46,459 nucleotides of DNA from a virus. The stretch spans positions 1-46,459 of the IMG/VR virus record IMGVR_UViG_3300018476_000003; one strand, 5' to 3'. The translations under genes and the position numbers were made by a program. The notes beneath the pieces were generated by a model. That model saw only the letters and a list, made by a program, of their open reading frames with translations, did no database searches and was not told where the DNA came from. Below, piece after piece: positions 4,608 to 40,124 of this stretch. Each line of letters begins with the position of its first letter. Position 1 is the stretch's first letter.

Positions 4608-4929
4608 CCCGCCCCATCTGTCGAAGTACCAGCAGCGCGTGTTTGAGGCGCACCAGCCCAAGACTGCGCGCGCGGCGATGAGGCTGGTCGGGCTGGGGCG
4701 CAGGTCCGTGCGACTGCTCGTGCTGCAGGGCTTGGTCTCCAACGACATGTGGCCCGACTTGCCGGGGTGGTCCATTCGTTGCGCGGGCCGCCGTTGCTTC
4801 CCGCTGCCCCTCATCAATCGCCAGACCATCACCGCCGACCGCCACGTCTGCCCATTGCGCGGATGGCAATGCCCCTGCTGCGCCGAATGCACGCGAGCGT
4901 GCGAGGAGTCGACCGACCATGGCCACTGA
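4597..4929 (+). CDS. Small Cys-rich protein between terminase and portal
   Basis: ORF 4561..4929; ATG 4597 follows ggaggg. C-terminus HVCPLRGWQCPCCAECTRAC. Overlaps the terL stop and the portal start. Confidence 0.45.
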   Translation: MGANPPHLSKYQQRVFEAHQPKTARAAMRLVGLGRRSVRLLVLQGLVSNDMWPDLPGWSIRCAGRRCFPLPLINRQTITADRHVCPLRGWQCPCCAECTRACEESTDHGH

Positions 4930-7201
4930 AGAAGAGCACCCGCGCCCCGACGCGACCGACGGCGATGTCGCCAACGACACCGAGAGCGTTTTCGAGATGG
5001 GCCAGGACAGCCCGAGCGAGGAGCCGTTCGAATACAGCGAGGACGAGATGAACCTCGTCAAGGCCTTCAAAGAGCACCCCGAGGGGCGCGCTGCGCTCAA
5101 GCGCCTGAGCGAAAAGTGCATCACCGACTTCGACGCGGCGTGGGAGGCGACCGAGGGGTTCCGCAAGACGATGGCCGACACGTGGAAGTTGTTTGCCGGC
5201 ACCCTCGACCCGAAGGGGCCGCCGTTTCAGCACATGGCCAACGCGCACGTGCCGCTGCTCATGGAGAACACCATCCGCATGGGCTACCGCCAGGCGTACG
5301 AGCTGTTCGGCAACTGGACCAACGTCTTCGGCGTCAACCCCATCGGGCCCGATGACGAGCACACCGCGAAATTGCTCTCGCTCCACGGCAACTGGCAGAT
5401 TCGCAAGCGCATCAAAGACTTCAAGCGCCAGCTCGGCTACCGCGGCCTGCTCGCCTTCAATCTCTTCGGCGACGTCACCTGCCACAGCTACTGGGACCCG
5501 CAGCGCCGCTACAACCGCCACGAGATTCTCACCCCGAACGAGTTCGTCTGCGCCAACGCGCACGTGTCCACCATGCCCGACTACTCGGATGTGTCGTGGG
5601 TGGCGAAGGTCATCTTCATGGACGGGCACGAGGTCCGGAAGATGAAAAGGCTCTGGGAAGACGTGGAGACGATGCTCGCGCACCTGCCGCCGGACTGGGA
5701 CGAGGGCAGCATCACCCAGGAGATGCGCGAGGCGGTCGACAAGAACCTCGGGGTCGACTCGACCGCGTACCAGAAGGGGCAGTACAAAATCATCCAGTAC
5801 GAGGGCTGGCTCAACCTGCCGCCGAGCACGGTGCAGCCTACCGAAGAGGGCGAAGAGCCCGAGGAGCCACGCGACCGCTACTGCAAGCTGCTCATCGACC
5901 ACCAGACGAGCACGGTGCTCTCGCTGCAGATCCACGAGCGCGTCGACCCGTACGACAAGCGCCGCTTCGAGTTCGAGAGCGAGCAGCTGAAAAAGTACCA
6001 GGACGGCATCGCCGAGCTGGAGGCCTTCAAGCAGGAGATGGAAGAGACTCGCCGCGCCGCGCTCTCCATGGGCCACGAAATGGACCCCGCCAGCGACGGG
6101 CCCGCGCAGGCCATCGTCATGGCGCGCGCCATCGAGGAGCTGCCGCCGCCACCCGAGCCCCCGATGCCCGAGTGGATGCGCGGCGACCCCAACGCTCGCC
6201 CGCGCCCGCCCGAGAGCGTGCCCATTCAGCTGTTTGCCCACGGCGTCAACATCGAGCCCATCCTGGGCATCCTGGGCCTGGGCACCGGAGCTATCCACGC
6301 CGCGCAGAACAAGGCGGCCAACATCGCGCTGTCCGCCTTCATCGACCAGGGCACGCTCGGCAACTTCAAAAACTTCCTGATGAAGGGCGACGTGCGCTTC
6401 CCGGGTGGGGAGAAAATCATCATCGAGCCCGGCAAGATTCATAAAGTGGAGGGCGCCATGGACCTGTCCAAAGACATGGTCGCGCTCGACTTCGGCGAGG
6501 CCAGCCCGCAGATGCTGCAGCTGGTCGAGATGCTGATGAAGTTCGGCAACACGGTGACCAACACCCCCGAGGTGCTCTCGGGCGAGAGCGGCAAGAGCGG
6601 GGAGACCGCGCAGGGCATCAGCGCCCGCATCGAGCAGGCGACCAAGATGCTGAGCGTACCGACGGGCAAGTACGCCGACTTCCTCACGCAGGTGCTCATC
6701 AACAACGCCGGGCTCAACGCCATCTTCATGGACGACGCCGAGTTCTTCGCCGTCAACAACCACGACCCCGCGCTCGGCCCGATGGGGCAGCAAATGATGA
6801 GCGTGGGCCGCGAGCTGTACGACCGCCCCTATGACATCGAGATTAGCGCGGACCTGAAGTTCACCAGCACCGCCCAGCGCATCAGCGAGGCCGATGCGCT
6901 CGTGCAACTGCCGAACGCCGTGCCCGAGCTGCAGGGCAACTTCACCTTCAAGCACATGACCGTGCAGAAGGCGCTCGAGGCCCGCAACCGCTACGACCTC
7001 ATCTCGACGCTCGGCGCCCCGCCGCCTGCGCCGCAGTTCTACGGCGCTCCGACCTCTCCGCCTGCTCCGCCGCCGGGAGCGCCCATGCCAGGTCCTGGCG
7101 GACCGGCGGGGCCAGGAGGGCCGCCACCAGCTAACCAGAACGGCGGTCCCCCGAAGCCGCAACCGAAACCCCAACAGCCGCAACCCCCGAAGGCCGCATG
7201 A
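4919..7201 (+). CDS. Portal protein (by size and position) with Pro-rich C-terminal tail
   Basis: A 760-aa ORF immediately after the terminase. The C-terminus is APPPAPQFYGAPTSPPAPPPGAPMPGPGGPAGPGGPPPANQNGGPPKPQPKPQQPQPP. No diagnostic motif can be read by eye. Confidence 0.55.
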   Translation: MATEEEHPRPDATDGDVANDTESVFEMGQDSPSEEPFEYSEDEMNLVKAFKEHPEGRAALKRLSEKCITDFDAAWEATEGFRKTMADTWKLFAGTLDPKGPPFQHMANAHVPLLMENTIRMGYRQAYELFGNWTNVFGVNPIGPDDEHTAKLLSLHGNWQIRKRIKDFKRQLGYRGLLAFNLFGDVTCHSYWDPQRRYNRHEILTPNEFVCANAHVSTMPDYSDVSWVAKVIFMDGHEVRKMKRLWEDVETMLAHLPPDWDEGSITQEMREAVDKNLGVDSTAYQKGQYKIIQYEGWLNLPPSTVQPTEEGEEPEEPRDRYCKLLIDHQTSTVLSLQIHERVDPYDKRRFEFESEQLKKYQDGIAELEAFKQEMEETRRAALSMGHEMDPASDGPAQAIVMARAIEELPPPPEPPMPEWMRGDPNARPRPPESVPIQLFAHGVNIEPILGILGLGTGAIHAAQNKAANIALSAFIDQGTLGNFKNFLMKGDVRFPGGEKIIIEPGKIHKVEGAMDLSKDMVALDFGEASPQMLQLVEMLMKFGNTVTNTPEVLSGESGKSGETAQGISARIEQATKMLSVPTGKYADFLTQVLINNAGLNAIFMDDAEFFAVNNHDPALGPMGQQMMSVGRELYDRPYDIEISADLKFTSTAQRISEADALVQLPNAVPELQGNFTFKHMTVQKALEARNRYDLISTLGAPPPAPQFYGAPTSPPAPPPGAPMPGPGGPAGPGGPPPANQNGGPPKPQPKPQQPQPPKAA

Positions 7202-26384: not shown

Positions 26385-26723
26385 ATGGCTCAAGTCGGCA
26401 ACAGCATCACCTTCTCGGTCGCGTTCACCAACGCGAGCGGCAGCGCGACGGACCCCACTGTCGTTACGTTCTCTTTGAGGGAGCATCTCGACGGGACCGA
26501 GCGACAGTGGACTTACAACGCAGTCCCGGTCGAAGGCACACATTACCCGACAGGCGCCAACCCCATCGTGCGCGACAGCGCGGGCGCCTTCCACGTGGTC
26601 TACGTGACGCGCAAGCCCGAGCGCCACGTGGGCTTCTGGCTCGGCACCGGCACCGTGAACCAGTCGAGCCAGACCACCGAGTTCGTGAGACACTCGGACC
26701 TGACGAGCAACGATGGCGTGTGA
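26385..26723 (+). CDS. Hypothetical fibre-cluster protein
   Basis: ORF 26262..26723; the ATG at 26385 gives MAQVGNSITFSVAFTNASGSATDPTVVTF (Ig-like beta pattern). Confidence 0.5.
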   Translation: MAQVGNSITFSVAFTNASGSATDPTVVTFSLREHLDGTERQWTYNAVPVEGTHYPTGANPIVRDSAGAFHVVYVTRKPERHVGFWLGTGTVNQSSQTTEFVRHSDLTSNDGV

Positions 26724-28803
26724 CGATAGGCAGCTCACCCAGGCGCAGCGCGCCGCCGCCTTTGCGCAGCAGAGGACGGGAGTGGTGCGCGCGGTGCGCC
26801 CCTTCAGTGGCAGCGCGACCGTCGAGAACCTCATCGACTACATCAACCGCGAGCTAGGGCCCGCGGTGCGGGACTCGCGCCAGGCCGTCAACGACGTGTA
26901 CCTGCAGGTCGCCGACAACGCGCCCAGCGCCAACCCCCTGGCCTTCTACTTCTCGACGGAGACGGCGGCAGCGGACCCAACGGTGGGGCGCATCCGTCTC
27001 AACCAGGCCGTGCAGAACACGGCCACGGTGCTGCGAGTCTCGCAGAGCAACGGGCGCCTGGTGGACGTGCAGCCCTGGCTCGATGTCATGGCGGGCGGCC
27101 CGACGACGCCACTCGGGGTGGTGACGCTGACCGACGCCATCAACCCCGGGCGCTTCATCCGCTGGGACCTCAACACCATGACGGACCAAGGCGCCTACTG
27201 GGACCTCGGCGTCACCGTCATCGAGTCGAGCGACGCCGTGCCCTTCGTCGATGGCGAGGCGGTCACCATCGGTTTCATCTCGGGTGTGTCCGCGGCGGGC
27301 AGCACCATCCCCGTCGGCGCTCTCAGCCCCATCGCGCCCGACACCTTCGTCGGCAACATCACGACCGGCACGGTAGCGCCCGTCGCCGTCCCGCTTGCCG
27401 ACGTCGACTCGACCAGCGTCCCCTACGATGCCACGACGCATACCTTCCGGCGCGCTGCGCTGACCGGCTTTGCCGAGGCGGCGCTCAACACCAACGCGAC
27501 CACCAGCGCCGAGCCCATCGTCACCTATTCGCTCAGCTCCAACATGAGCGCCGAGCGCGTGCTGACCAGCTCGACCAGCAACACGGTCTCGACCAGCGTA
27601 GCGAGTCAGATTGCGGTGCAGCGCGCCGCGCTCACGGGGGCCATCGCGGCGGCGGCGGACGCCAACACGACGCTCTTCTCCGGCATCCGGGACAACGGCA
27701 GCGCCGAGACGGACCGCACGAACCTGAACTTCGTGAGCGGCGACTCGAACACCGCCGTCATCACCGACGACGCCGGCAATGACGAGCTGGAGGTCACCTA
27801 CAACTACGTCGGCTCGACCACCAACGTCAACCTGACCAGCGTGACCGGCGCGCAAGGTGTCATCGACATCAGCGCGCTGCGCTGCGGTGGCTCCGTCACG
27901 GTCGAGACGGTGTCGGCGGACTACACCATTGCAGGCTTCACCGCCAAGCCGGTGGGCTTCTGGTTCGACTTCATCGACCGCCGCACGAGCGGCGCCACCA
28001 TTGGGACCATCCTCGACAACTCCGGCGCGACCACCACCAGCGTGCGCTGCCCTGGCAGCGAAGACCTCATCCAGCCCTTCTCGGCGACGACGCAATACTA
28101 CTACTTCAGCGACCGATGGCGCGCGTTCCCGGCGTCTCCTCCAGCAGGGCGACTCATCGCCACCACCGTCTATACGAGCGGGTCGGGCACGCACACCTAC
28201 GACGCACGTTGTCGCCGCGCGCTCGTCCGCATGAAGGGCGGCGGCGGCGGCGGCGGCGGCGCGGGCACAGCGGATGGCAACATCGGCAGCGGTGGCGGCG
28301 AAGGCGGGCTCGAAGAGCTGGACATCACCAGCGTCCCGACAAGCAGCGCGTACGCCGTGGGCGCCGCTGGGACAGCGGGAGCGGCCACGCCTGACCCGGG
28401 GACTGCGGGCGGCACCGGTGGCGACACGACGTTTCATGATGGCTCGGTCACCAGGACAGCCAGCGGTGGGGTCGGGGGCGCCGTGGGCGGCACCATGGCG
28501 GAGCCCGGCAACGGCGGCGCCGTTGATTCGATTGGCGGCACGGTTTCCTATTCCTGCCGTGGAGCCCCCGGCGAGCACGGCTTCTACGACACCACCAACG
28601 GCACCGCCCACGGAGGCACTGGCGGAGGCACTGGCGGAGGCAAGGGCGGCTTCGGTGGCACCCAAGGGACCACGTCAGAAGCGGGCGTGGCGGCGGGCAC
28701 CAACTCCGGCGGCGGCGGCGGCGGCGGAAGCCGCCCAGCAAGCCCAGCCGTAGCCGGCGGTGCCGGAGCGGCGGGCTACATCATCGTCGAGGAGTACACG
28801 TGA
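26713..28803 (+). CDS. Tail fibre / receptor-binding protein with glycine-rich C-terminal domain
   Basis: 696 aa. The C-terminal ~190 aa contain GGGGGGGAGTADGNIGSGGGEGG..., GTGGDTTF, GGTGGGTGGGKGGFGG and end AGGAGAAGYIIVEEYT, as in phage glycine-rich fibre domains. Confidence 0.65.
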   Translation: MACDDRQLTQAQRAAAFAQQRTGVVRAVRPFSGSATVENLIDYINRELGPAVRDSRQAVNDVYLQVADNAPSANPLAFYFSTETAAADPTVGRIRLNQAVQNTATVLRVSQSNGRLVDVQPWLDVMAGGPTTPLGVVTLTDAINPGRFIRWDLNTMTDQGAYWDLGVTVIESSDAVPFVDGEAVTIGFISGVSAAGSTIPVGALSPIAPDTFVGNITTGTVAPVAVPLADVDSTSVPYDATTHTFRRAALTGFAEAALNTNATTSAEPIVTYSLSSNMSAERVLTSSTSNTVSTSVASQIAVQRAALTGAIAAAADANTTLFSGIRDNGSAETDRTNLNFVSGDSNTAVITDDAGNDELEVTYNYVGSTTNVNLTSVTGAQGVIDISALRCGGSVTVETVSADYTIAGFTAKPVGFWFDFIDRRTSGATIGTILDNSGATTTSVRCPGSEDLIQPFSATTQYYYFSDRWRAFPASPPAGRLIATTVYTSGSGTHTYDARCRRALVRMKGGGGGGGGAGTADGNIGSGGGEGGLEELDITSVPTSSAYAVGAAGTAGAATPDPGTAGGTGGDTTFHDGSVTRTASGGVGGAVGGTMAEPGNGGAVDSIGGTVSYSCRGAPGEHGFYDTTNGTAHGGTGGGTGGGKGGFGGTQGTTSEAGVAAGTNSGGGGGGGSRPASPAVAGGAGAAGYIIVEEYT

Positions 28804-29796: not shown

Positions 29797-30119
29797 GCCG
29801 CCCGCCGCCCCTGCCGCCGCCCTTCCTGCGCGCCGTGGAGGACGTTACGGAGCCCGGACTGGGCGCCCTGGCGCTGCGGCAGGAGAATGCGCGCCTGATG
29901 GAGGACAACGCCCGCCTGCGTCGCGAGCGCAACGAGGCGCGCGCCGAGAAGACGAGCACGGCTCCACCTCCCCGGCGAGGCAAGGGCCTGGCCGTGGGCG
30001 CTGCCGCCGGCTCGGGGCTCTTCCTGGCCCTGCGCCTCGTCCTGCGCGCCGTCGCTGACCAGTGGCCAGAGTACGCGCCGCTGGCCGAGGCGCTGCTCGG
30101 GATGTTGGGGGGGCTCTGA
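29793..30119 (+). CDS. Lysis-cassette protein: Pro-rich N-terminus, coiled coil, C-terminal hydrophobic segment
   Basis: GTG 29793 in ORF 29625..30119: VSRPPPLPPPFLRAVEDV...RQENARLMEDNARLRRERNEARAEK...GLAVGAAAGSGLFLALRLVLRAV. TGATG junction with the endolysin. Confidence 0.45.
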   Translation: MSRPPPLPPPFLRAVEDVTEPGLGALALRQENARLMEDNARLRRERNEARAEKTSTAPPPRRGKGLAVGAAAGSGLFLALRLVLRAVADQWPEYAPLAEALLGMLGGL

Positions 30120-30553
30120 TGGCGCGCTACCTCGACGTCTGCCGCTTCGGGGTGCTCTCTGCCTACCAGCTCTCGAGCTGCACCCCGGCGCTGCAGCGGC
30201 TGCTCACCGAGGCCATCCGGCGCGCGCCCAAGTGGCTCGACTTCGCCATCCTCTGCGGGCACCGCAACGAGGTCGACCAGAACAAAGCCTTCGCCGATGG
30301 GCAGAGCAAGAAGCGCTGGCCCGACGGCGAGCACAACCACCTGCCGAGCCGCGCTGTCGACATCCGCCCGGCATCCCCCTTTAACGCTGCCGACTGGCAG
30401 GACCAAGTACGCTTCGGCCGCATCATGGGCTTCATCGAAGGCGTCGCCGTCGATCTGGGCATTCCCATCCGTCTCGGCCTGGACTGGAACCGGGACGGGC
30501 GCAGCATCGACGAGACGTTCAAAGACCTGGGTCATCTCGAGGAGGCAGCGTGA
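30119..30553 (+). CDS. Endolysin, peptidase M15 (VanY / L-Ala-D-Glu peptidase-like)
   Basis: GEHNHLPSRAVDIRP and DLGHLE match the H..(S)xAxD / DxxH zinc-ligand motifs of the M15 family. Confidence 0.75.
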   Translation: MARYLDVCRFGVLSAYQLSSCTPALQRLLTEAIRRAPKWLDFAILCGHRNEVDQNKAFADGQSKKRWPDGEHNHLPSRAVDIRPASPFNAADWQDQVRFGRIMGFIEGVAVDLGIPIRLGLDWNRDGRSIDETFKDLGHLEEAA

Positions 30554-30726
30554 GCCTCTGGACGCGCAGCGTGGACGTGGCCTTCGACGTATTCGAGGGC
30601 GTCGTCTCGCTCTACGACTTCGTGCGCCGCTTCCGACAGCCCGAGCCCATCCCGCTCACCCGCCGCAGCGTCGCTCACCAGCAAGAGCAGATCCGGCGGG
30701 CCACCATCCGCCCGCCACCGCCGTGA
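30550..30726 (+). CDS. Hypothetical 58-aa protein
   Basis: Not in the track. GAGGAGG lies upstream of GTG 30550. GTGA overlaps at both ends. Confidence 0.35.
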   Translation: MSLWTRSVDVAFDVFEGVVSLYDFVRRFRQPEPIPLTRRSVAHQQEQIRRATIRPPPP

Positions 30727-31025
30727 CCATCAACAGCCGGCGCAAGGGCTCGAGCTACGAGCGGGAGGTGGGCGCCGAGCTGGGCCTGGCTCGCGCGCTC
30801 GACCAATGCCGCGACGGCGGCGGGGACCTGGAGCACCCGAGCCTGGCCATCGAGTGCAAGCGCTACGCTCGCGCCGTCAACGTACCGAAGGCCATGGACC
30901 AAGCCGTACGCTCAGCCCATGGCCGCATCCCCGTGGTGATTCACCGCGTCGACCGCACCGAGAGCCTCGTCACCATGAGGCTCTCGGACTGGCTGCCGCT
31001 CTACCGGGAGCGGTGGAAGCCTTAG
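30723..31025 (+). CDS. PD-(D/E)XK nuclease, Holliday-junction-resolvase-like
   Basis: GTG 30723 in ORF 30297..31025: INSRRKGSSYEREVGAEL...GGGDLEHPSLAIECKRY. This is the RKG..ERE ... D ... ExK arrangement. Confidence 0.55.
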   Translation: MTINSRRKGSSYEREVGAELGLARALDQCRDGGGDLEHPSLAIECKRYARAVNVPKAMDQAVRSAHGRIPVVIHRVDRTESLVTMRLSDWLPLYRERWKP

Positions 31026-32668
31026 GCGGCCTCCCGCGCGTCCAGCTCTTCCGCCGTGTAGCCCATCTCCTCTGGGCAGTAGCAGCCCATCGTGGCGCCG
31101 GGCCAGAGGATACGAGCGAGCTTGCTGCCCGCCGTCTTCATCAGCATATCCTGCGGCCGCTTCTCCCAATTGCCTGGCTTGCCGTAGTTGGCACCGCGGC
31201 AGAGCCCGGCCTGGCGCGCATCCTCGATGGTGTAGGTGTACTCGACCGGCTGCGGCTGGCGCTTGTGCTTGCCGACCCACGTCACCGAGGTGGCGCTCAT
31301 CTTCGTGGGCATCAGGTACTCGAAGTTGGCATCCCGCTCGCACAGCGCACGGATGAGGTCGGCCGAGGCCACTGGCTTGCCTTCGACGATGTGATGGTTG
31401 GCGAGCGCGGTGGTGATGCCGAGCCCCATCTCCTTGGCGCGCACCATGACCGTGAAGATTTGGGCCTCGCTCTTGTACTGCGAATAGAGCTGGCCCTTGT
31501 AGAGCCAGGTGCTCATCTGATAGGCGCTCGTCAGATCCATGGGCTGCAGCTCGCTCGTCACGAGCCCGTATTTGGTCTGCGTCACCTCGGGCTGAGCCTT
31601 CACCATCTGCGTGCGCGGCACGACCACCGAGGCGCGCGCCGGCTCGGCTGCCTTGTCGCCCGGGGCGTTGCTGACCGTGTCACTCTCGCCGTTCTGCTGA
31701 CGCTCGCGGTCGTACTGCTGCTCGAGCAGGTCTTCCCGGCTGGCCTGGTCGTTGGAAGCGCGGGCCTTCAGGCTCTCCTGATACAGGCGCCCCGCCTCTT
31801 CGAGCGCTGGGTCTTTGACTTCGTCCATGCTGTTCGCTTTCTCCTGCTCGGGTTCAGGCTCGCGCGCCACGAGCAGCGCGTCCGCATCGATGGGGACGTT
31901 GGTGTCTAGGGTCGCGAGCTTGATGCTCATCACCAGTGAGTTCCAGCCCTCGGCCAGCGACTTGACGGTCGCGCTCGGCTTGCTGCCCTGCAACTGCGCG
32001 GTGGTCGCCATGCCCTCGGCGAGCTTCTCGACCGTGAGGTACTTGTTGACCAGCTCGGAGGCTCGCTTGGGGCCGATGCCGGTGACGCCGGGGATGTTGT
32101 CGCTGCTGTCGCCGACCAGCCCCTGGTAGAAGGGCATCAGCTCCGGGGTGACGCCCCACTTGGCGACGACGCCGTCCACGTCCCGCACCACCCAGTCATT
32201 GGTGCCCACCGGCGGGATGTACTGCTTGACGTGCTTGTTCAGGCATTGGGCCGCGTCCTTGTCGACGCTGACGATGCGCACGTCATCGCACCAGACGCTG
32301 TATTTGGCAGCCAAGGTCGCGATGACGTCGTCCGCCTCGTAGCCCTCGCACCAGCCGACGTTGAAGCCGAGCCGCTGAATCTCCTTGTAGAGCCACGCGC
32401 GCTGCGCTCGCTCCTCGGGCTCGAGCACGGGGCGGGTCGCCTTGTAGTCGGGAGAGATAGCGAGACGGTGCGTGTAGGGCGGCGCATCGCGGCAGATGAT
32501 GACGTGCTCGACGCCTTGCTTCAGGTGCTCGAGGTCACGCAGGGTCGCCTTTGCCGCGCCGAGCGGCAGCCCATCGGTGATGGTGTGCCAGCGTTTTTTG
32601 AAGAGGTAGGCCAGGTCGACCAGCGCGATGGACTCGGGAGCGGGGAGCAGCGTTGCTTCTTGGGTCAT
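31022..32668 (-). CDS. Fusion protein: FEN/Pol I-type 5'-3' exonuclease plus Red-beta/RecT-like annealase
   Basis: N-terminal half: DLAYLFKKRWH, CRDAPPYTHRLAISPDYKATR, GYEADDVIATLA, VSVDKDAAQ, GDSSDNIPGVTGIGPKRASELV. C-terminal part: GNWEKRPQDMLMKTAGSKLARILWPGATMGCYCPEEMG, compare lambda Beta GPWQSHPKRMLRHKAMIQCARLAFGFAGIYDKDEA. The ATG at 32668 gives MTQEATLL. Confidence 0.75.
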   Translation of the reverse strand: MTQEATLLPAPESIALVDLAYLFKKRWHTITDGLPLGAAKATLRDLEHLKQGVEHVIICRDAPPYTHRLAISPDYKATRPVLEPEERAQRAWLYKEIQRLGFNVGWCEGYEADDVIATLAAKYSVWCDDVRIVSVDKDAAQCLNKHVKQYIPPVGTNDWVVRDVDGVVAKWGVTPELMPFYQGLVGDSSDNIPGVTGIGPKRASELVNKYLTVEKLAEGMATTAQLQGSKPSATVKSLAEGWNSLVMSIKLATLDTNVPIDADALLVAREPEPEQEKANSMDEVKDPALEEAGRLYQESLKARASNDQASREDLLEQQYDRERQQNGESDTVSNAPGDKAAEPARASVVVPRTQMVKAQPEVTQTKYGLVTSELQPMDLTSAYQMSTWLYKGQLYSQYKSEAQIFTVMVRAKEMGLGITTALANHHIVEGKPVASADLIRALCERDANFEYLMPTKMSATSVTWVGKHKRQPQPVEYTYTIEDARQAGLCRGANYGKPGNWEKRPQDMLMKTAGSKLARILWPGATMGCYCPEEMGYTAEELDAREAA

Positions 32669-33108
32669 GATGCAATCCTTTGTGCCGACCGAAGCCGGCA
32701 GTAGATGGGGTCGTGGGTGAGAGCGGCTTCGGCTTCCGCCTCGCTCAGTGTGTCGAAAGAGGCGCCGCCGACGTCGAACACCCACGGTGGGGCAGGAGGA
32801 ACGATGAAACCAACGAGGTCCAAATCCCCGTGGGGAAGAGCACCTGTTCTGGGCAGTGTACAATTGTATTGGTCAGTGTCAACGTTGGATGTCAGTTCAG
32901 TGTCCTGGACCGGCACGGCATTCGCCGCTTCGCGCTGTTTGCAGCCGCGATGGGAGAGCCGCGGCTGGTAGTTCAGCTGCCGCGAGTGGACCGTGCGCAG
33001 CGCCCCGCAATCGCACCGGCAGTACCAGCGCGGGGAGACGGCGTTGACGGCTGCGAGCACGGTGTCGAGCCCGAAGCGCCGTCCCGTCAGGTCTTTGCGG
33101 GCCCTCAT
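32665..33108 (-). CDS. Zinc-ribbon-like protein
   Basis: LTGRRFGLDTVLAAVNAVSPRWYCRCDCGALRTVHSRQL...HRGC. ATGA overlaps at both ends. Confidence 0.55.
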   Translation of the reverse strand: MRARKDLTGRRFGLDTVLAAVNAVSPRWYCRCDCGALRTVHSRQLNYQPRLSHRGCKQREAANAVPVQDTELTSNVDTDQYNCTLPRTGALPHGDLDLVGFIVPPAPPWVFDVGGASFDTLSEAEAEAALTHDPIYCRLRSAQRIAS

Positions 33109-33317
33109 GGCTCCTCCTGCTCGATGAGCTGACGCAGCGCCTTGCTGCGCGCCAGCTGGCTCTTGCGGTTGCCCCGGCGCCGGCTCTGGTAGGTGCGCGC
33201 CTCGGGTGTCCGGAGGCAGCGGCGCGGCGCCACTCCGAGGGCGGCAGCGCGCTCGGTCTCGTCGGGGCTGGTGACCCCGCGGGTGAAGGCCTCGGTCCAG
33301 CCGAGCGACACGCTCAC
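33105..33317 (-). CDS. Hypothetical 70-aa protein
   Basis: GTG 33317 follows GGAGG and forms a GTGA overlap with the upstream stop. It is the 3' part of ORF 33105..33476. Confidence 0.4.
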   Translation of the reverse strand: MSVSLGWTEAFTRGVTSPDETERAAALGVAPRRCLRTPEARTYQSRRRGNRKSQLARSKALRQLIEQEEP

Positions 33318-33850
33318 GAGGCCTCCGTGGCGCGCTTGCGCTTGGCCTTCGTCTTCACTGGCACGGTGAGCGCCTGAGCGAGAGCGAGCGGCATCTGCTG
33401 GCGGTCGGGCAGCGTCATGCCCGGCGTGGGCTCGCGGTTGGCGTGCGACCGGTGCGCGTTCTCGATCTGCGCCCATCGGGCGACGGCGAAGAACGTCTCA
33501 CCCTTCGGGTCCCAATCGAACACCGCATCGACTCGCAGGCGCTGAAAGTCGACAGGGGCCAGCGCTTGGGCCAGGGCGGTCATCAGCTCGCCGGACTTTC
33601 GAGGCCTCGGGTAGTTCGTCTCGAACACGTCGGTGGGCCCGTTGTCGTTGGCCACCTCGAGCCGCAGCTCGAGCAGCCGAAGGCGCTCCTCGGCCTGGCG
33701 CAGCTCCGTGCATTCGCGGTGGCAGTCGAAGCTGGCGAGCAGCAGGTGAGCCATGTCCAGGCCCTTGCCGCGGTCGTAGCTCTCGCGGCAGCGCACCTTG
33801 CGGGCAGCCACCTCGGCGCGCGCGTTGTCGATGGCGACGATGACGTTCAT
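33314..33850 (-). CDS. Hypothetical protein
   Basis: ORF in track; ATGA overlap with the upstream gene. Confidence 0.6.
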   Translation of the reverse strand: MNVIVAIDNARAEVAARKVRCRESYDRGKGLDMAHLLLASFDCHRECTELRQAEERLRLLELRLEVANDNGPTDVFETNYPRPRKSGELMTALAQALAPVDFQRLRVDAVFDWDPKGETFFAVARWAQIENAHRSHANREPTPGMTLPDRQQMPLALAQALTVPVKTKAKRKRATEAS

Positions 33851-34806
33851 GCGGCCTCCTTCGGGCTGACGCCCTTGCGTTTGCGTAGTGAGATGCTGAG
33901 CCGCTCGCCGAGCATCTCGAGGGCGCGCTTGGCGCCCAACTCCACCATGGCGCTTTGCAGCTCGCGGACGTGGGCGTCGAGGTCGAGCCCGTGCTTTTTA
34001 GCGAAGGCTCGGTGTTTGTCGGTGGGCTCGAGCAGCGGGACGGCGTCGAATCTGCCGCCGCTCGCTCGCGGCTTGCTCGCCGCTGCGGCTTTCGCCCGCT
34101 CGGTCTCGTCCCAAGTGCGCCATTTGCCGAAAAAGCTGCGGACGTAGTTGTCGAGCTGGTCGGGCAACACCCCGCGCTGCCCGCCGATCGGGCCCGTGCG
34201 CAGCGACAGGATGCGAGCGTCCAGGTCCGCAATGCCCGCCATCGTCGCCTCGGCGCGCAGCGCAGCGCAGGGCTTCCACGACTCCGGGAGTTTATCCAGG
34301 GCTACCGAACGACTCATGGGGGGTAGGGGGGATTCCCTGTCTTCAGGGAATGTTTTAGTTGTGGGTTTGGGTTTGGTTTTGGGTGGGGTAACGATCGGGT
34401 CACAGGGGGTAACCGGGACCACGTCATTGGCCGCCTTGGCAGCAGCTCGGGTGTTGGCCATGTAGCGACGGGTGCGAGCGTTCTTTGCTTCGCGCTTGGC
34501 CAGGTCGCGCTGCTCCTCGAAGCCGAGCACCCGCCACCCTCCGGGCACGCGCTCGATGAGCCGCCCCTGGTTGGGGTCCTCGGGGTCGGCGTCGGCATCC
34601 TGGAGAGCGAGCACCTCGAGGGCCTCACGCGCCTCGCCGCCGGTGACGTGGGCGCCGATGGCGACCCCTGCCACATCGGTGCTCATGTAGCCCTCGGGGT
34701 CACACCGCAGCTCAAGCCAGAGCCAGACGCAGCGGGTCGCGGGCGACAGCGCCCAGAGTCGGGACGAGAGAACCTTTTGGAAGATGGGGGTGTACTGTTG
34801 TCGCAT
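33847..34806 (-). CDS. Replication-organiser-like protein (N-terminal winged-helix pattern)
   Basis: ATG 34806 follows aaggaggg. IFQKVLSSRLWALSPATRCVWLWLELRCDPEGYMS...GRLIERVPGGWRVLGF resembles the N-terminal domains of phage replication initiator/organiser proteins. Confidence 0.5.
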   Translation of the reverse strand: MRQQYTPIFQKVLSSRLWALSPATRCVWLWLELRCDPEGYMSTDVAGVAIGAHVTGGEAREALEVLALQDADADPEDPNQGRLIERVPGGWRVLGFEEQRDLAKREAKNARTRRYMANTRAAAKAANDVVPVTPCDPIVTPPKTKPKPTTKTFPEDRESPLPPMSRSVALDKLPESWKPCAALRAEATMAGIADLDARILSLRTGPIGGQRGVLPDQLDNYVRSFFGKWRTWDETERAKAAAASKPRASGGRFDAVPLLEPTDKHRAFAKKHGLDLDAHVRELQSAMVELGAKRALEMLGERLSISLRKRKGVSPKEAA

Positions 34807-34872
34807 GGTGTGGGGGCCCTCCTTGGCCCCTGATGTGGGCACCGTCCTTGGTGCCATTGTGGGTGCTTCGTT

Positions 34873-35069: not shown

Positions 35070-35091
35070 CGACCTACGTTCTGGGTCAAAC
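35070..35091 (+). repeat. attP arm-type repeat candidate (right)
   Basis: CGACCTACGTTCTGGGTCAAAC. 16 of 18 positions match 34873-34890 and the GGGTCAAAC tail is shared. It overlaps the int stop codon. Confidence 0.5.
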
Positions 35092-36513
35092 GCCAGAAAA
35101 CGGGCTTCCCGGTCCACGCTGGGCAGCGTTGAGCAGCTGCCGCATCTGGTCGAGCAGGGCGGCAGCGTCCAGCGGCGGCGCGACAAACCCGGACACCCCC
35201 TGTCCGGGTTTAGACGCAGCGCTTGCGTCAAAACTAGTGGCCGCATCAGCCACCGGTTTCGCCGGTCGCGGCAAGGCGGCGTCGGGGGCCTGCACCAGGC
35301 GCGCCGTGTCGTAGCGGCTGGAGGTCGCCAGCTGCGTGTGCCCGGCCAGCGCCAGCACGTCGGCGGTGGGCACGCCGGCACCCTTGAGCGCCGTCACGAA
35401 GGCTCGGCGCAGGGAGTGGAAGTCCAGGGCCCGGGACTCGTCGGTGTCCGTCTGGAACGCGCAGTAGCGCTTGTCCGGGTTGGCAGGGTCCCAGCCCGGC
35501 AGCGGGCGCACGATGCCTGCCCCCCAAAAGGCACGCCGCAGCGCCTTGGTGAAGCTGGTGCCATTGCGGGCCTTGGCTGCCCCCACCTTGGTCGCCTTGC
35601 GCTGGTAGGTGCTCCCGTCCTTCCGGGTCACCGTGCCGCCCTTGGTGGTGCGCTCCACGGGGAAGACGGGGCCACTCTTGGGGCTGCCCTGCTTCTGCCA
35701 CCAGGCCTTGAAGTGGATCCACGCGCTCGGCGGCACGCCGTGCTCGACCATCTCGTACGACTTGACCCGGCGGGTGGTGACGAGCTTGCCCTCGGTATCC
35801 GTCTTGGGACGACGGACCTTCATGCGTCCCGTCTCCCAGTCGGTGACGTGCTCCCAGCGAGCCTCGAGCAAGTCGCTCGTGCGGTGCCCGGCCATGTCCC
35901 GGCAGAGCAGGCAGGCGATGTCGAGCTGCGTCTCGAAGCCCCTCTTCTCTCGGAAGCGCAGAAGCTCGGCGTCGCTCGGCACCTGGCGCAGCCGCCCGTC
36001 TTCTACGGCGTTGCTCGGCATGGCGAGGCTGCGGGCGGGGTTGTCCTCCCGGACGTTGCCGCGCACCAGCTTGGCCATCACCTGGCTCATGTCCGTGCGC
36101 ACGTAGGCGATGGTGCCCTTGAGCAGGCCGAGCGCCGGCATCCGATCCAAGACCGACGAGCAGTGCCCGGCATTGACCGCCCACGCTTCGATATGCCCGA
36201 TGATGGGGAACACGTACGTGCGCAGGCGCGTGCGCCGGTCGTGCGCCTTCTTCACCTCGGGGCGCGTCTTGGTCGGCATCGCGTCCACGATGCGCTCGGC
36301 CGCCTCTTTGAAAGTCTCGGTGCGGGCCTCCTTGGGTGGTTCGCCGGTGGCCAGCCAGCGCTCGTAACGCTGGCTGGCCACGTGTTTATCGTCCGTGCCG
36401 AGCGATAGCCAGCGCCCGCGCGCGCAGCCCTCGGGGTAGCCGCGCACGCGGCCCACCCAGGTCTTCATCGACTGGCGCCACCGCGGCGCTTCTCCCGTCA
36501 CTTTTCTCGGCAT
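35086..36513 (-). CDS. int: Tyrosine recombinase / phage integrase
   Basis: AGHRTSDL (Arg), HSLRRAF (H-x-x-R), LAGH and SSRY (Tyr) occur in the canonical order. Adjacent to the tRNA fragment. Confidence 0.9.
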   Translation of the reverse strand: MPRKVTGEAPRWRQSMKTWVGRVRGYPEGCARGRWLSLGTDDKHVASQRYERWLATGEPPKEARTETFKEAAERIVDAMPTKTRPEVKKAHDRRTRLRTYVFPIIGHIEAWAVNAGHCSSVLDRMPALGLLKGTIAYVRTDMSQVMAKLVRGNVREDNPARSLAMPSNAVEDGRLRQVPSDAELLRFREKRGFETQLDIACLLCRDMAGHRTSDLLEARWEHVTDWETGRMKVRRPKTDTEGKLVTTRRVKSYEMVEHGVPPSAWIHFKAWWQKQGSPKSGPVFPVERTTKGGTVTRKDGSTYQRKATKVGAAKARNGTSFTKALRRAFWGAGIVRPLPGWDPANPDKRYCAFQTDTDESRALDFHSLRRAFVTALKGAGVPTADVLALAGHTQLATSSRYDTARLVQAPDAALPRPAKPVADAATSFDASAASKPGQGVSGFVAPPLDAAALLDQMRQLLNAAQRGPGSPFSGV

Positions 36514-37083: not shown

Positions 37084-37350
37084 ATGCCAGCCCCCAAGTT
37101 AGCGAACCTCGAGCTGACCACCCGCGAGCGAGCGGCGCTCGCCTTCTACCGGAGCCATGTCGACGAGCATGGGCGCCCACCGACCCAGCGCGCGCTCGCC
37201 GAGCACCTCGGCGTCTACCTGAGCGCGGCGCAGTACATCCTGCGGCGCCTGGTCGACAAGCGCTACCTCTCGCGCGTGTCGCGCCCCGTCACCGAGTACC
37301 GGTTGCGCTTGAGCCCCAAGGGGCGCAAGGCTCCGCCCCCCACGGGGTGA
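37084..37350 (+). CDS. LexA-N-terminal-domain-like winged-helix DNA-binding protein (repressor candidate)
   Basis: LTTRERAALAFYRSHVDEHGRPPTQRALAEHLGVYLSAAQYILRRLVDKRYLSRV matches the LexA_DNA_bind layout. There is no peptidase S24 domain. Confidence 0.6.
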   Translation: MPAPKLANLELTTRERAALAFYRSHVDEHGRPPTQRALAEHLGVYLSAAQYILRRLVDKRYLSRVSRPVTEYRLRLSPKGRKAPPPTG

Positions 37351-37459: not shown

Positions 37460-37687
37460 ATGGATGCAGCACCAACGGCGGCAACGTGGTTGCCCAGTCG
37501 CGCGGACTTTGCCGCGCTCGAGCTTTCCGACGAAGATGAGCGCGACGTGAACGAGACGATGGCGCTCATCGTGGTCAGCGTGCGGGTGGGCAGCATCAGC
37601 CCGCACTTTGCCAACTGGCTCGTCAGCAAGCTGGCCGAAGAAAAAGCCGAGGCCTGCGCCCGGCGTATCGAGAGAGAGAGAGCATGA
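37460..37687 (+). CDS. Hypothetical protein
   Basis: ATG 37460 follows gggagcgggagca. It is the 3' part of ORF 37361..37687. Confidence 0.45.
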   Translation: MDAAPTAATWLPSRADFAALELSDEDERDVNETMALIVVSVRVGSISPHFANWLVSKLAEEKAEACARRIERERA

Positions 37688-38409
37688 AGAAAAAACAGAA
37701 GCGCCGCAGACACGACCCGCAAACCAAAGCCGCCGCCGTGGCGCGCGCCCAAGTCGTGGGCCTCACCCAGGCGGGTCGCGAGATCGGCTGCGCCGCGTCG
37801 GTGGTCGGACGCTGGGCGAAGAAGGCCGGCGTGACCGTGCCGCAGTTTCACTTCGCCCCGGGGCGAGGCCTGCGCCGCGTCGAGGAGCCCGAGGCCCCGG
37901 GGCTCGGCGCAGGCAACCCCGAGCCGCGACCGGTGACGGTCACGCCGCCCGCGAACAAATACCACCAATACGCCGCCGACACACCGGAGCACCGCGCCAT
38001 CGCGCTGCGCATCGTGCGCGGCGAGGCGCGCCAGGTCGTCGCCAATGAGATCGGGGTCAGCTCCACTCGCATCTCGCAAATCGCGCTCGCGCTCGGCCCT
38101 CGCGTGGCCGCCGAGCACGGCATCGACTGGACCCCCAAGTCCTATCCCCAGCGACGCCCCAAGGGCACCGGGAGCGGCACGCTCGTCAGCAGCGCCGGGC
38201 GCCCGCCCGAGCAGCTGGCCATGTACTCGCCGCCCACCACCCCGCTGCCGCGCGTGACGGCGCAGCCCGTGCGCGACGAGGCCGAGCAGGCCCGCGCCCA
38301 GGCGCAGAGCGAAATGCTCGAGACCGCGCTGCGCCAAGCGTTGCGCGAACGCGACGCCTTCAAGCTCGTCCACGAAGTCCTCATGAGAGAGAAAGACCCC
38401 AGCCGATGA
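37684..38409 (+). CDS. HTH DNA-binding protein (two HTH-like segments)
   Basis: ATGA overlap upstream. GLTQAGREIGCAASVVGRWAKKAG and ARQVVANEIGVSSTRISQIA. Confidence 0.55.
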   Translation: MKKKQKRRRHDPQTKAAAVARAQVVGLTQAGREIGCAASVVGRWAKKAGVTVPQFHFAPGRGLRRVEEPEAPGLGAGNPEPRPVTVTPPANKYHQYAADTPEHRAIALRIVRGEARQVVANEIGVSSTRISQIALALGPRVAAEHGIDWTPKSYPQRRPKGTGSGTLVSSAGRPPEQLAMYSPPTTPLPRVTAQPVRDEAEQARAQAQSEMLETALRQALRERDAFKLVHEVLMREKDPSR

Positions 38410-39656
38410 TGCCCGCCAAGCTGCCTCCCACGCCATACCCGTTTCAGGCCCGCGCTATCCCTCAGGTGCTCAAGAAGTTTGACGACGGAGTGAAGGCGCT
38501 CGTGCTCGTGAGCCCGACCGGCTCCGGTAAGACCGTGATGGCCGCACACGTCATGATGGCGCTCAACAGAGCAAACGAGCACCGTTTCGAGAAAGTGAAC
38601 TGCATCAGTCACCGCCTCAGCATCAACGAGCAGAACGAGCAATTGCTCTGCCCGACGTTTACGCCGCAGGAGTTCTACGACGGCAAGCCGGAGAAGTTTG
38701 GCACACCGGATCTGGTCATTTGGGAGGAGTGCCACCACTCGGAGGCGCCTACATTCAAGGCCGCGCGCAAGCGCTTCCCGAACGCGCTGATGCTCGGACT
38801 GACAGCGACTCCACAACGGTCCGACGGGCTCGCGCTCGACCTCTTCGAGGATATGGTGGTGGCTGCGCACAATTCCGAATTGCTGCTCAACAAGACCATC
38901 GCACCGTGTCAGGTGGACGTGCCTGAAAGCTTCTACGAAGACCAGACGCCAGACCTGGCGTTGGCCTATCTCGACTATCGAGAGGCGCACAATCGCGCGC
39001 TCATCTTCTGCCCGAGCATCGAAGAGGCGGAGAGCGTGGCCAAGCGCCTGAAGAAAGTCCAACCGTACCATTGCCAGCGAGGGCGCAAGACCAATGCAGC
39101 CGCGCTCACTGCCTTCAAAAACGGCACGTTGGATGCGCTCACTACGGTAGACGCGCTCGGCGAAGGAATTGACGTGCCACAAGCGGACTTGCTCGTGCTC
39201 GGCCGCCGTTGTGAAAACATCAGCACGTGGCTCCAATACTGCGGGCGCATCTTGCGGCGCTTCGAGGGCAAGAGAAAGTCGCGCGTGCTCGATTGCGTGG
39301 GCGCCAGCCTGCGTCATGGCTCCCCCACCGAGGACTTGGTCTACAGCATCACGGGCACCGGCATTCAACGGCGCGGCGGTCAGGGCCAGTCGTTCGAACG
39401 CGAGTACACGGGACGCGGAGAGCTGAAGCCCTACCGGGCGAAGTTCCGCACGCTCTTTGGGTGGCAGGACGCCACGCCCGAAGACAAGCGCCGACAGCTC
39501 GGGTGGCTACGCCAGCATGCGGCGACCCGTGGCTACACCGAAGACGTAGCGCTGGCGTGCTTCGAAGCGCTCTTCGGCGAAGCGCCGGCGGCTCAGAGCA
39601 GCGCACGCCGGCTGGCTCCGCCGAGCAGTCGCGTCACCAATGGGAAAGCGTCGTGA
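38406..39656 (+). CDS. SF2 DEAD/DEAH-type helicase
   Basis: SPTGSGKT (Walker A), VIWEECHH (DExH), LGLTATPQR, GEGIDVP, QYCGRILR. Confidence 0.85.
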   Translation: MMPAKLPPTPYPFQARAIPQVLKKFDDGVKALVLVSPTGSGKTVMAAHVMMALNRANEHRFEKVNCISHRLSINEQNEQLLCPTFTPQEFYDGKPEKFGTPDLVIWEECHHSEAPTFKAARKRFPNALMLGLTATPQRSDGLALDLFEDMVVAAHNSELLLNKTIAPCQVDVPESFYEDQTPDLALAYLDYREAHNRALIFCPSIEEAESVAKRLKKVQPYHCQRGRKTNAAALTAFKNGTLDALTTVDALGEGIDVPQADLLVLGRRCENISTWLQYCGRILRRFEGKRKSRVLDCVGASLRHGSPTEDLVYSITGTGIQRRGGQGQSFEREYTGRGELKPYRAKFRTLFGWQDATPEDKRRQLGWLRQHAATRGYTEDVALACFEALFGEAPAAQSSARRLAPPSSRVTNGKAS

Positions 39657-39869: not shown

Positions 39870-40124
39870 TCACTCCCCCCGCACGGCCCACTGACCCGAG
39901 CTGACCATTTTGGGCACATCGCACAAGAGGCCCTTGGTCTCGAGCAGGCGCAGCGCCTCGAGGGCGGTCTGTCTGCTGACCCCGAGCCGGGTCCCCACCT
40001 CGACCGCATTGGGGGCTCGGCCTAGCTCCCGGGTCAGGACCCGCACCGCCTCGATATAATCGCTCTGGCGGGCCGTAGCGGGGCGCGGCGGGGCATACGG
40101 GGAGCGAGCGCGCTTAGCGGCCAT
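39870..40124 (-). CDS. Winged-helix DNA-binding protein (LexA-DBD/MarR-like), last gene of the early operon
   Basis: YIEAVRVLTRELGRAPNAVEVGTRLGVSRQTALEALRLLETKGLL. Confidence 0.6.
   Translation of the reverse strand: MAAKRARSPYAPPRPATARQSDYIEAVRVLTRELGRAPNAVEVGTRLGVSRQTALEALRLLETKGLLCDVPKMVSSGQWAVRGE

Follow-up and report, generated by a model that had tools for sequence, protein, structure and literature searches.

Introduction

Single-strand-annealing recombination in phages is understood through two-protein systems, lambda Exo/Beta and RecE/RecT, in which a PD-(D/E)XK exonuclease hands single-stranded DNA (ssDNA) to an annealase through a specific contact. Nucleases of the flap endonuclease (FEN) family are found in other recombination settings: T7 gene 6 encodes a FEN-family 5′-3′ exonuclease that serves phage recombination beside an annealing protein, gp2.5; in eukaryotes EXO1, a nuclease of the FEN/Rad2 superfamily, acts with RAD52, an annealase of the Rad52 superfamily; and the FEN-like poxvirus nuclease G5 is said to take part in recombination, reportedly from work by Senkevich in 2009. 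Here we analyze a stretch of 46,459 nucleotides of viral DNA (IMG/VR record IMGVR_UViG_3300018476_000003, positions 1 to 46,459; hereafter the window, meaning this whole stretch) in which one gene encodes, in a single polypeptide of 548 amino acids (aa), a FEN-type 5′ nuclease joined by a linker to a predicted single-strand annealing protein (SSAP) domain of the Red-beta/RecT fold.

We consider it likely that this gene of a temperate tailed phage encodes a recombinase in which exonuclease and annealase are covalently coupled, the single-chain equivalent of Exo plus Beta or of RecE plus RecT, and the best reading is that a FEN nuclease has displaced the usual PD-(D/E)XK partner. In the full-text literature on SSAPs, on exonuclease-annealase two-component recombinases (EATR) and on the PIN superfamily, no FEN-RecT/Red-beta fusion was found described; Iyer, Koonin & Aravind 2002 may hold an early mention. 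In a 2023 review of exonuclease-annealase recombinases (PMC11611040), the words fusion, fused, FEN and flap appear nowhere. The Rad52-SSAP superfamily as a whole has been treated elsewhere (PMC9870868).

Results

One reading frame, kept across a large family

The fusion gene is a single unbroken open reading frame (ORF) of 548 codons and a stop (Table 1); the initial annotation had the frame and its coordinates right and left the strand, which is minus, unstated. The start codon, an ATG at 32668, shares an ATGA with the stop of the gene upstream, and the GC content at third codon positions, 0.86, is what real genes typically show in this window, where GC stands at 67%. In a public collection, the gene caller chose the same start for an identical 548-aa protein (P0001) on a contig of 46,492 bp, and the identical protein was independently assembled in ENA and Logan assemblies.

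A word-indexed search returned more than 115 full-length homologues, 40 to 91% identical, that keep the single ORF; in nearly all of them the precomputed architecture shows the same three Pfam domains, and contigs of 46 to 49 kb hold many of them. The family alignment, to which the conservation of residues refers below, comprises 118 full-length homologues (43 to 92% identical) and the query (119 sequences). Further out, an exhaustive HMMER search with the C-terminal domain alone, with representatives clustered at 50% identity, found 8,209 representatives at E ≤ 1e-3 and 1,625 at E ≤ 1e-10. An N-terminal FEN domain is present in 115 of the best 148 of these representatives, as scored with a profile built from the fused family’s own alignment, and Pfam confirms the FEN plus RecT architecture in one protein, L027, that is 36% identical and has a different genome context. 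A neighbor-joining tree of annealase domains places three standalone proteins together, yet inside the fused radiation.

The IMG/VR collection holds 24 two-domain loci that are 34 to 71% identical to the annealase domain, and 23 of them are single ORFs (one additional locus, L019, is cut by a contig end before the FEN region and stands outside the 24). The sole split locus, L010 (IMGVR_UViG_3300044699_000195, 3742-5588), reads its FEN and annealase halves in separate frames; compared with the fused locus L009, to which it is 99.6% identical, it carries one inserted A within the codons for LDTNVPLD. The split at L010 reflects a mistake in assembly or else a pseudogene of very recent origin. These data bear on an alternative already foreseen in the initial annotation, namely that an indel, from sequencing or assembly, turned two ordinary neighboring genes, FEN and RecT, into one; the indel would lie in the low-complexity linker. 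The different frames of the L010 halves are what such an artefact would predict, but that locus is a single base away from a fused sibling, the same protein was recovered in two independent sets of assemblies, and the one-ORF arrangement persists through the 118 homologues and the 115 distant representatives despite linkers of 43 to 192 aa. We therefore give this explanation next to no weight, and a frameshift artefact was rejected on the conservation of the single ORF across homologues. The fusion is real, ancient and common, recurring in many related phage sequences from metagenomes, and long-term selection acts on its architecture in a large clade of phages.

The architecture had been proposed from this one sequence, and the database search bore it out, though not as a one-off: what emerged was a large fused family that goes by other names. 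Automated pipelines label its members only “5′-3′ exonuclease” or “DNA polymerase-1”; the UniProt viral set contains one two-domain protein, A0A6J5MUB0, named only “PIN_53EXO domain containing protein”; and among the cultured phages in INPHARED no FEN-annealase fusion was found. The fused family is thus present in the databases but mislabeled and uncharacterized.

The nuclease half

The FEN motifs read from the sequence in the initial annotation (DLAYLF, CRDAP, YKATR, GYEADDVIA, VDKD and GDSSDNIPGVTGIGPKRA) are all in the translation, as is the C-terminal segment GNWEKRPQDMLMKTAGSKLARILWPGATMGCYCPEEMG. The assignment of the N-terminal half to the flap endonucleases was upheld by Pfam, in which the two FEN domains match in canonical order and far above their gathering cut-offs (5_3_exonuc_N, 83.8 bits against 34.3; 5_3_exonuc, 73.8 bits against 40; E-values in Table 1). 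A PHROGs exonuclease family also matches this half (E 2e-28), and the NCBIfam Pol I and 5′-3′ exonuclease models score far below their cut-offs, for example pola at 168 bits against 600. The best sequence matches in the PDB are the 5′ nuclease domains of Taq (phmmer, 2e-21) and mycobacterial Pol I, with further matches to E. coli Xni, FenA, 9l56 and 6c33 (both “5′-3′ exonuclease”) and T5 FEN. In the AlphaFold (AF2) model the predicted local distance difference test score (pLDDT) is 90-98 over the N-terminal half and 95-98 over residues 173-264.

Nine acidic residues (D18, D61, E111, D113, D114, D136, D138, D187 and D190) show full invariance or a conservation of at least 90%, with D187 and D190 invariant. 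In the phmmer alignment with Taq, eight of them (D61, E111, D113, D114, D136, D138, D187 and D190) stand opposite Taq acidic residues. Metal sites A and B of E. coli Pol I are formed by D13, D63, E113, D115, D116, D138 and D140 (PMC5499597), and the first seven carboxylates of the fusion protein pair with these one-to-one, D18 being equated with D13 by position only, as the Taq alignment begins at residue 29. Pol I and T4 RNase H are exonuclease-proficient, whereas Xni-type relatives have no exonuclease activity (PMC5499597); because the carboxylates of both metal sites are kept, the domain would be of the exonuclease-proficient Pol I/T4 RNase H type and not of the site-A-only Xni type. The putative arch is retained as well, with K76 and R79 at least 90% conserved and helices predicted at 66-71 and 84-99 (pLDDT about 95). 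By residues and profiles, the N-terminal 265 aa form a complete 5′ nuclease of the Pol I FEN type in which neither metal site is impaired. Ahead of the FEN domain, two homologues, P0047 (694 aa) and P0078 (706 aa), carry about 130 to 145 additional aa, perhaps through a wrongly called start or as a further N-terminal domain.

The annealase half

The initial annotation took the C-terminal half for an annealase on a by-eye alignment with lambda Beta, and profile searches agree. Pfam RecT (PF03837) matches residues 475-539 with 26.8 bits in the whole protein and 29.4 bits in the C-terminal half (gathering cut-off 24), PHROG 4171, “RecT-like ssDNA annealing protein”, matches with E 4.5e-10 over profile positions 71-203, and NCBIfam bet_lambda matches with E 3.5e-5, under the model’s cut-off. 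The fold points the same way. An AF2 model of residues 360-548, made from the family alignment, has a pLDDT of 87.8 and a predicted template modeling score (pTM) of 0.79, and its sole significant Foldseek match in the PDB is the N-terminal domain of lambda Red-beta (7ujl_A; E 1.5e-6, probability 1.0, template modeling scores 0.52/0.60, 153 columns). Against BFVD there are 31 matches at E ≤ 1e-3, of which the top one is the same fusion labeled PIN_53EXO and all the other named ones are RecT or Bet. A single-sequence phmmer search of the PDB with the C-terminal domain gave no match. The register of the by-eye alignment was reproduced by both HMMER and hhalign: domain positions 95-179 fall against Bet 96-178, at E 0.11 with the family profile in HMMER and at E 8.9e-4 and 23% probability in hhalign. 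With Gordonia phage Wizard gp54, annotated as RecT-like, hhalign gives 97.3% probability over 148 columns (gp54 residues 30-180). Since the direct comparison with Bet is weak, the annealase assignment rests on the fold search and on such intermediate homologues.

In Red-beta, W143 is almost universally conserved in the family, as is F66 (Newing et al. 2022, PMC9512822); W143, H153, K154 and R161 hold the template strand, and mutation of R161 cuts in vivo annealing 1000-fold (PMC9512822). The alignment through this region is gap-free and sets W501 opposite W143 and R519 opposite R161, both invariant in the 119 sequences, and W501, K511, T512, K516 and R519 are all invariant or nearly so. The N-terminal half of the annealase domain did not align to Bet by sequence, and no F66 equivalent was placed. 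By sequence and predicted structure, the last 183 aa make up an SSAP core of the Red-beta/RecT fold in which the Trp and Arg that bind the template strand are retained, and the active-site residues of both the FEN and the annealase domains appear to be under selection. A separate annealase product starting at the internal Met355 was considered and rejected: the Met is not conserved, and the family consensus there is Ala-Leu.

What the core does not carry is a Red-beta-like C-terminal partner-binding domain, which in Red-beta binds lambda Exo and the host single-stranded DNA-binding protein (SSB) (PMC11611040) and is presumed to have a counterpart in RecT. The core is followed by just 13 residues here and by no more than 15 aa in 115 of 115 FEN-carrying representatives. 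All 4 clear standalone relatives, by contrast, have 69 to 144 residues beyond the SSAP core, and Wizard gp54 has about 130. An N-terminal FEN domain and a C-terminal extension are thus mutually exclusive in this small standalone sample (the 4 and Wizard gp54), and the partner-binding domain is typical of, not defining for, the RecT/Red-beta family. If covalent linkage has replaced the contact with Exo, loss of this domain is to be expected. The short tail that remains ends in EAA in 82 of the 119 sequences and in xAA in most others. Lambda Bet likewise ends in “...EQKVAA”; the shared EAA/VAA terminus may be a site of contact with a partner or with SSB, or a coincidence.

The linker between the two halves varies in length from 43 to 192 aa (median 105) and consists of 14% Ala, 13% Glu and 12% Pro. 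Two helices are predicted within it, at residues 287-307 and 311-325 (window 31694-31810; pLDDT 65-87), and these hold a semi-conserved E..Y.RER....E.D motif in an otherwise variable sequence; this helical element may be an interaction or autoinhibitory element. Residues 328-357 are predicted to be disordered (AF2 pLDDT below 50).

Relatives with separate genes

In cultured phages the annealase relatives are encoded by separate genes just downstream of a PD-(D/E)XK exonuclease. Gordonia phage Wizard has gp53, “exonuclease VIII / RecE”, followed by the RecT-like gp54; Glutamicibacter phage BIM BV-113 has a Cas4-family exonuclease, one small gene and then a RecT-like gene. Because the annealase of these relatives follows a RecE- or Cas4-type exonuclease, the FEN domain appears to fill the recombination-exonuclease slot in fused form. 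For two remote standalone annealases (L037 and L032, 25-27% identity), Pfam scans of the surrounding genes found no recognizable exonuclease.

Genomic setting

The window is an uncultivated temperate tailed phage, with structural, lysis and integration genes (Table 1) and repressor-like genes besides. The fusion gene is the last in a leftward, translationally coupled early operon that starts at the integrase gene.

Table 1. Parts of the fusion gene, its two neighbors and other landmark genes of the window (positions in window coordinates).
Feature	Position	Strand	Evidence
Whole fusion gene, 548-aa FEN-linker-annealase (annealase as predicted) and stop codon (31022-31024)	31022..32668	minus	ORF and translation
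PIN-like 5′-nuclease core (5_3_exonuc_N), residues 15-172	32153..32626	minus	Pfam E 1.5e-23
Helix-3-turn-helix (H3TH)/SAM-fold DNA-binding domain, residues 173-264 (GDSSDNIPGVTGIGPKRA; D187, D190)	31877..32152	minus	Pfam 5_3_exonuc E 1.7e-20
Ala/Glu/Pro-rich linker, residues 265-365	31574..31876	minus	Composition in 119 homologues; AF2
Predicted Red-beta/RecT-fold SSAP core, residues 366-535	31064..31573	minus	Pfam, PHROG, AF2, Foldseek, hhalign
Short acidic C-terminal tail, residues 536-548, ending EAA	31025..31063	minus	119 homologues
Convergent 100-aa PD-(D/E)XK-type junction-resolvase-like gene	30723..31025	plus	PHROG 244 E 4.6e-17; PDDEXK_15 24 bits
Upstream coupled 147-aa Cys-rich gene of the same leftward early operon	32665..33108	minus	ATGA overlap; partial PHROG 374 match
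Large terminase	3354-4607		
Tail fibre	26713-28803		
Endolysin	30062-30553		
Tyrosine integrase	35086-36513	minus	
Superfamily 2 (SF2) helicase	38406-39656		

Both neighbors are as the initial annotation described them. The convergent gene closes the late (lysis) operon and shares 4 nt with the stop of the fusion gene; its labels conflict, PHROG 244 being “RusA-like Holliday junction resolvase” and the Pfam PDDEXK_15 match falling under the cut-off of 27 bits, and from its sequence the product is probably a PD-(D/E)XK junction nuclease. A neighbor of this type also lies beside the fusion gene at loci L004 and L005. The Cys-rich product of the coupled upstream gene partially matches PHROG 374, an HNH endonuclease family (E 4.9e-7).

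Among the genes of the window, searches with Pfam, PHROG and NCBIfam recognized no DNA polymerase, primase, SSB or second exonuclease, several early genes having no match at all, and no Gam homologue was recognized in the phage. The unmatched genes of the early operon (33105-34857 and 37684-38409) encode products of 336, 178, 123 and 241 aa, among which an SSB, an inhibitor like Gam or an initiator of replication could be hidden. Two small paralogous genes, 37084-37347 (plus) and 39873-40124 (minus), both match PHROG 3502, and one of them has a further match to a repressor PHROG; they lie on either side of the helicase region in opposite orientations, their counterparts in L001 carry LexA_DNA_bind matches, and on these similarities they may be a pair of immunity regulators. 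The window contains no tRNA genes or Rfam features, hence no hint of an attachment site. The large terminase shares no more than 33% identity with those of cultured phages (Rhizobium, Pelagibacter and Roseobacter phages), and the lineage is far from anything cultured; a scan of species-representative genomes gave a sole match, a 22-kb contig of a metagenome-assembled genome labeled Microcella sp.

Discussion

The recombinase reading suggests a simple course of events. At double-strand ends, candidates for which are the terminally redundant ends of the injected genome and broken replication intermediates, the FEN domain would remove the 5′ strand in the 5′ to 3′ direction, and the tethered SSAP domain would load in cis on the emerging 3′ single strand and oligomerize there, the oligomer also holding the nuclease domains at the junction of single- and double-stranded DNA. 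The SSAP filament would then anneal the 3′ strand to a complementary single strand, after which the same FEN activity could trim the 5′ flaps of branch migration and leave ligatable nicks. In such a scheme the covalent linkage would replace the hand-off from lambda Exo that Red-beta's C-terminal domain mediates. In its strongest form the protein would be a self-sufficient single-polypeptide recombinase for double-stranded DNA (dsDNA), with one FEN site that both resects and trims, an SSAP loaded in cis, and a C-terminal domain made dispensable through linkage; we hold this to be possible but somewhat doubtful. Were it true, phages would have a third way to recombine by single-strand annealing, widespread and so far unrecognized, and a single compact gene would make a tool for recombineering or genome editing, perhaps with less dependence on the host.

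Several points weigh against the recombinase reading. The recombinase function is, for every member of the family, read from sequence and models. To our knowledge the FENs of the Pol I type act structure-specifically, and processivity on long duplexes is not known for them, so that resection on the kilobase scale is an assumption. Moreover, classical single-strand annealing after 5′ resection leaves 3′ flaps and not 5′ flaps, so the flap-trimming step fits only some intermediates. The Pfam RecT match spans only the last third of the profile (129-188 of 198) and is 3-5 bits over the cut-off, and the direct profile comparison with lambda Bet is, by itself, weak (hhalign 23%, HMMER E 0.11). The AF2 models have a pLDDT of 87-88; the full-length one, with a pTM of 0.60, gives no defined geometry between the domains and no fixed mutual orientation. 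Finally, the neighboring genes without matches could hide a partner nuclease or an SSB.

With the artefact set aside above, the alternatives differ in what each half of the protein is for. One is that the fusion is a replication or repair flap nuclease, removing primers and Okazaki flaps or processing nicks, whose SSAP fold only targets it to ssDNA or gapped DNA and concentrates the nuclease at forks, with no part in Red-like recombination. The kinship of the N-terminal half with Pol I 5′ nucleases (168 bits to pola, 2e-21 to Taq) speaks for this, as does the layout of FEN, linker and second domain, which mirrors that of Pol I; and in lambda Red oligonucleotide recombination the annealed strand enters at the lagging strand, a place that calls for a flap nuclease. 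On the other hand, the only candidate replisome component recognized in this phage is the SF2 helicase, with no polymerase or primase; the equivalents of Red-beta W143 and R161, which are specific to annealing, are invariant; and the standalone homologues sit in recombination modules of exonuclease plus RecT. On balance we judge a pure replication or repair role unlikely.

A different division of labor would put the annealase at the center, with host nucleases or packaging ends supplying the ssDNA and the FEN domain only cutting 5′ flaps after synapsis. Flap cleavage is the best-established activity of FENs, and the Xni-type relatives have no exonuclease activity (PMC5499597); the fusion protein, unlike Xni, keeps sites A and B, with all seven Pol I carboxylates in addition to D187 and D190, no other resection nuclease is recognizable in the phage, and the FEN domain is located where the relatives have RecE/Cas4-type exonucleases. 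An annealase served by outside nucleases thus seems very unlikely, and the coupled exonuclease-annealase remains the reading that we favor.

The fused family shows that nature has repeatedly kept an arrangement other than the two-protein hand-off, with a Pol I-type flap nuclease welded to an annealase core and the contact domain deleted. On the coupled reading, the family would be a natural experiment on the need to couple nuclease and annealase, an example of non-orthologous displacement of the resection nuclease, and a source of candidate one-gene tools for dsDNA recombineering or editing. Its recognition also corrects a systematic annotation gap, with hundreds of proteins labeled only “5′-3′ exonuclease” or “DNA polymerase I”; because the fusions carry only such labels, counts of RecT genes miss the recombinases of these phages.

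Comparison with known systems places the fusion protein between several of them, its halves being genuine members of the FEN and the Red-beta/RecT families. The N-terminal domain is closest to that of bacterial Pol I (5′ nuclease-linker-Klenow), with which it shares all the carboxylates and the layout of a FEN, a flexible linker and a second DNA-handling domain; where Pol I has its 3′-5′ exonuclease and polymerase domains, the fusion has the predicted SSAP domain. EXO1 with RAD52, and poxvirus G5, belong to other FEN subfamilies (XPG_I and Pox_G5), are separate proteins and show no sign of direct descent. T7 gene 6 with gp2.5, and likewise T5 D15 FEN and T4 RNase H, have a FEN-family nuclease in common with the fusion, and the T5 FEN structure is among the matches of the N-terminal half; in T7, however, the proteins are separate, and gp2.5 is an OB-fold, SSB-like protein and not an SSAP of the Red-beta/RecT/Rad52 fold. 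The modules of Wizard (gp53/gp54) and BIM BV-113 contain the closest annotated annealase homologues in cultured phages, at about 28% identity, in the same nuclease-first order, but as separate genes, with a PD-(D/E)XK exonuclease and an annealase extension of about 130 aa. With lambda Red Exo and Beta, the model EATR, the fusion shares a 5′-3′ nuclease paired with a Red-beta-fold core of about 180 aa in an early gene of a temperate phage; only the C-terminal half of that core aligns with Beta by sequence, and W143 and R161 are conserved. Lambda Exo is a toroidal PD-(D/E)XK trimer, whereas the fusion nuclease is of the monomeric PIN/FEN-fold type, and lambda Red has two polypeptides, a Beta C-terminal domain and Gam, whereas here there is one polypeptide and neither of the latter two was recognized. 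The two-component recombinases, lambda Red and RecET, are non-covalent complexes of separate proteins with a PD-(D/E)XK exonuclease, and the fusion protein has neither feature; by analogy, it would work like the lambda Red/RecET class without being a member of it.

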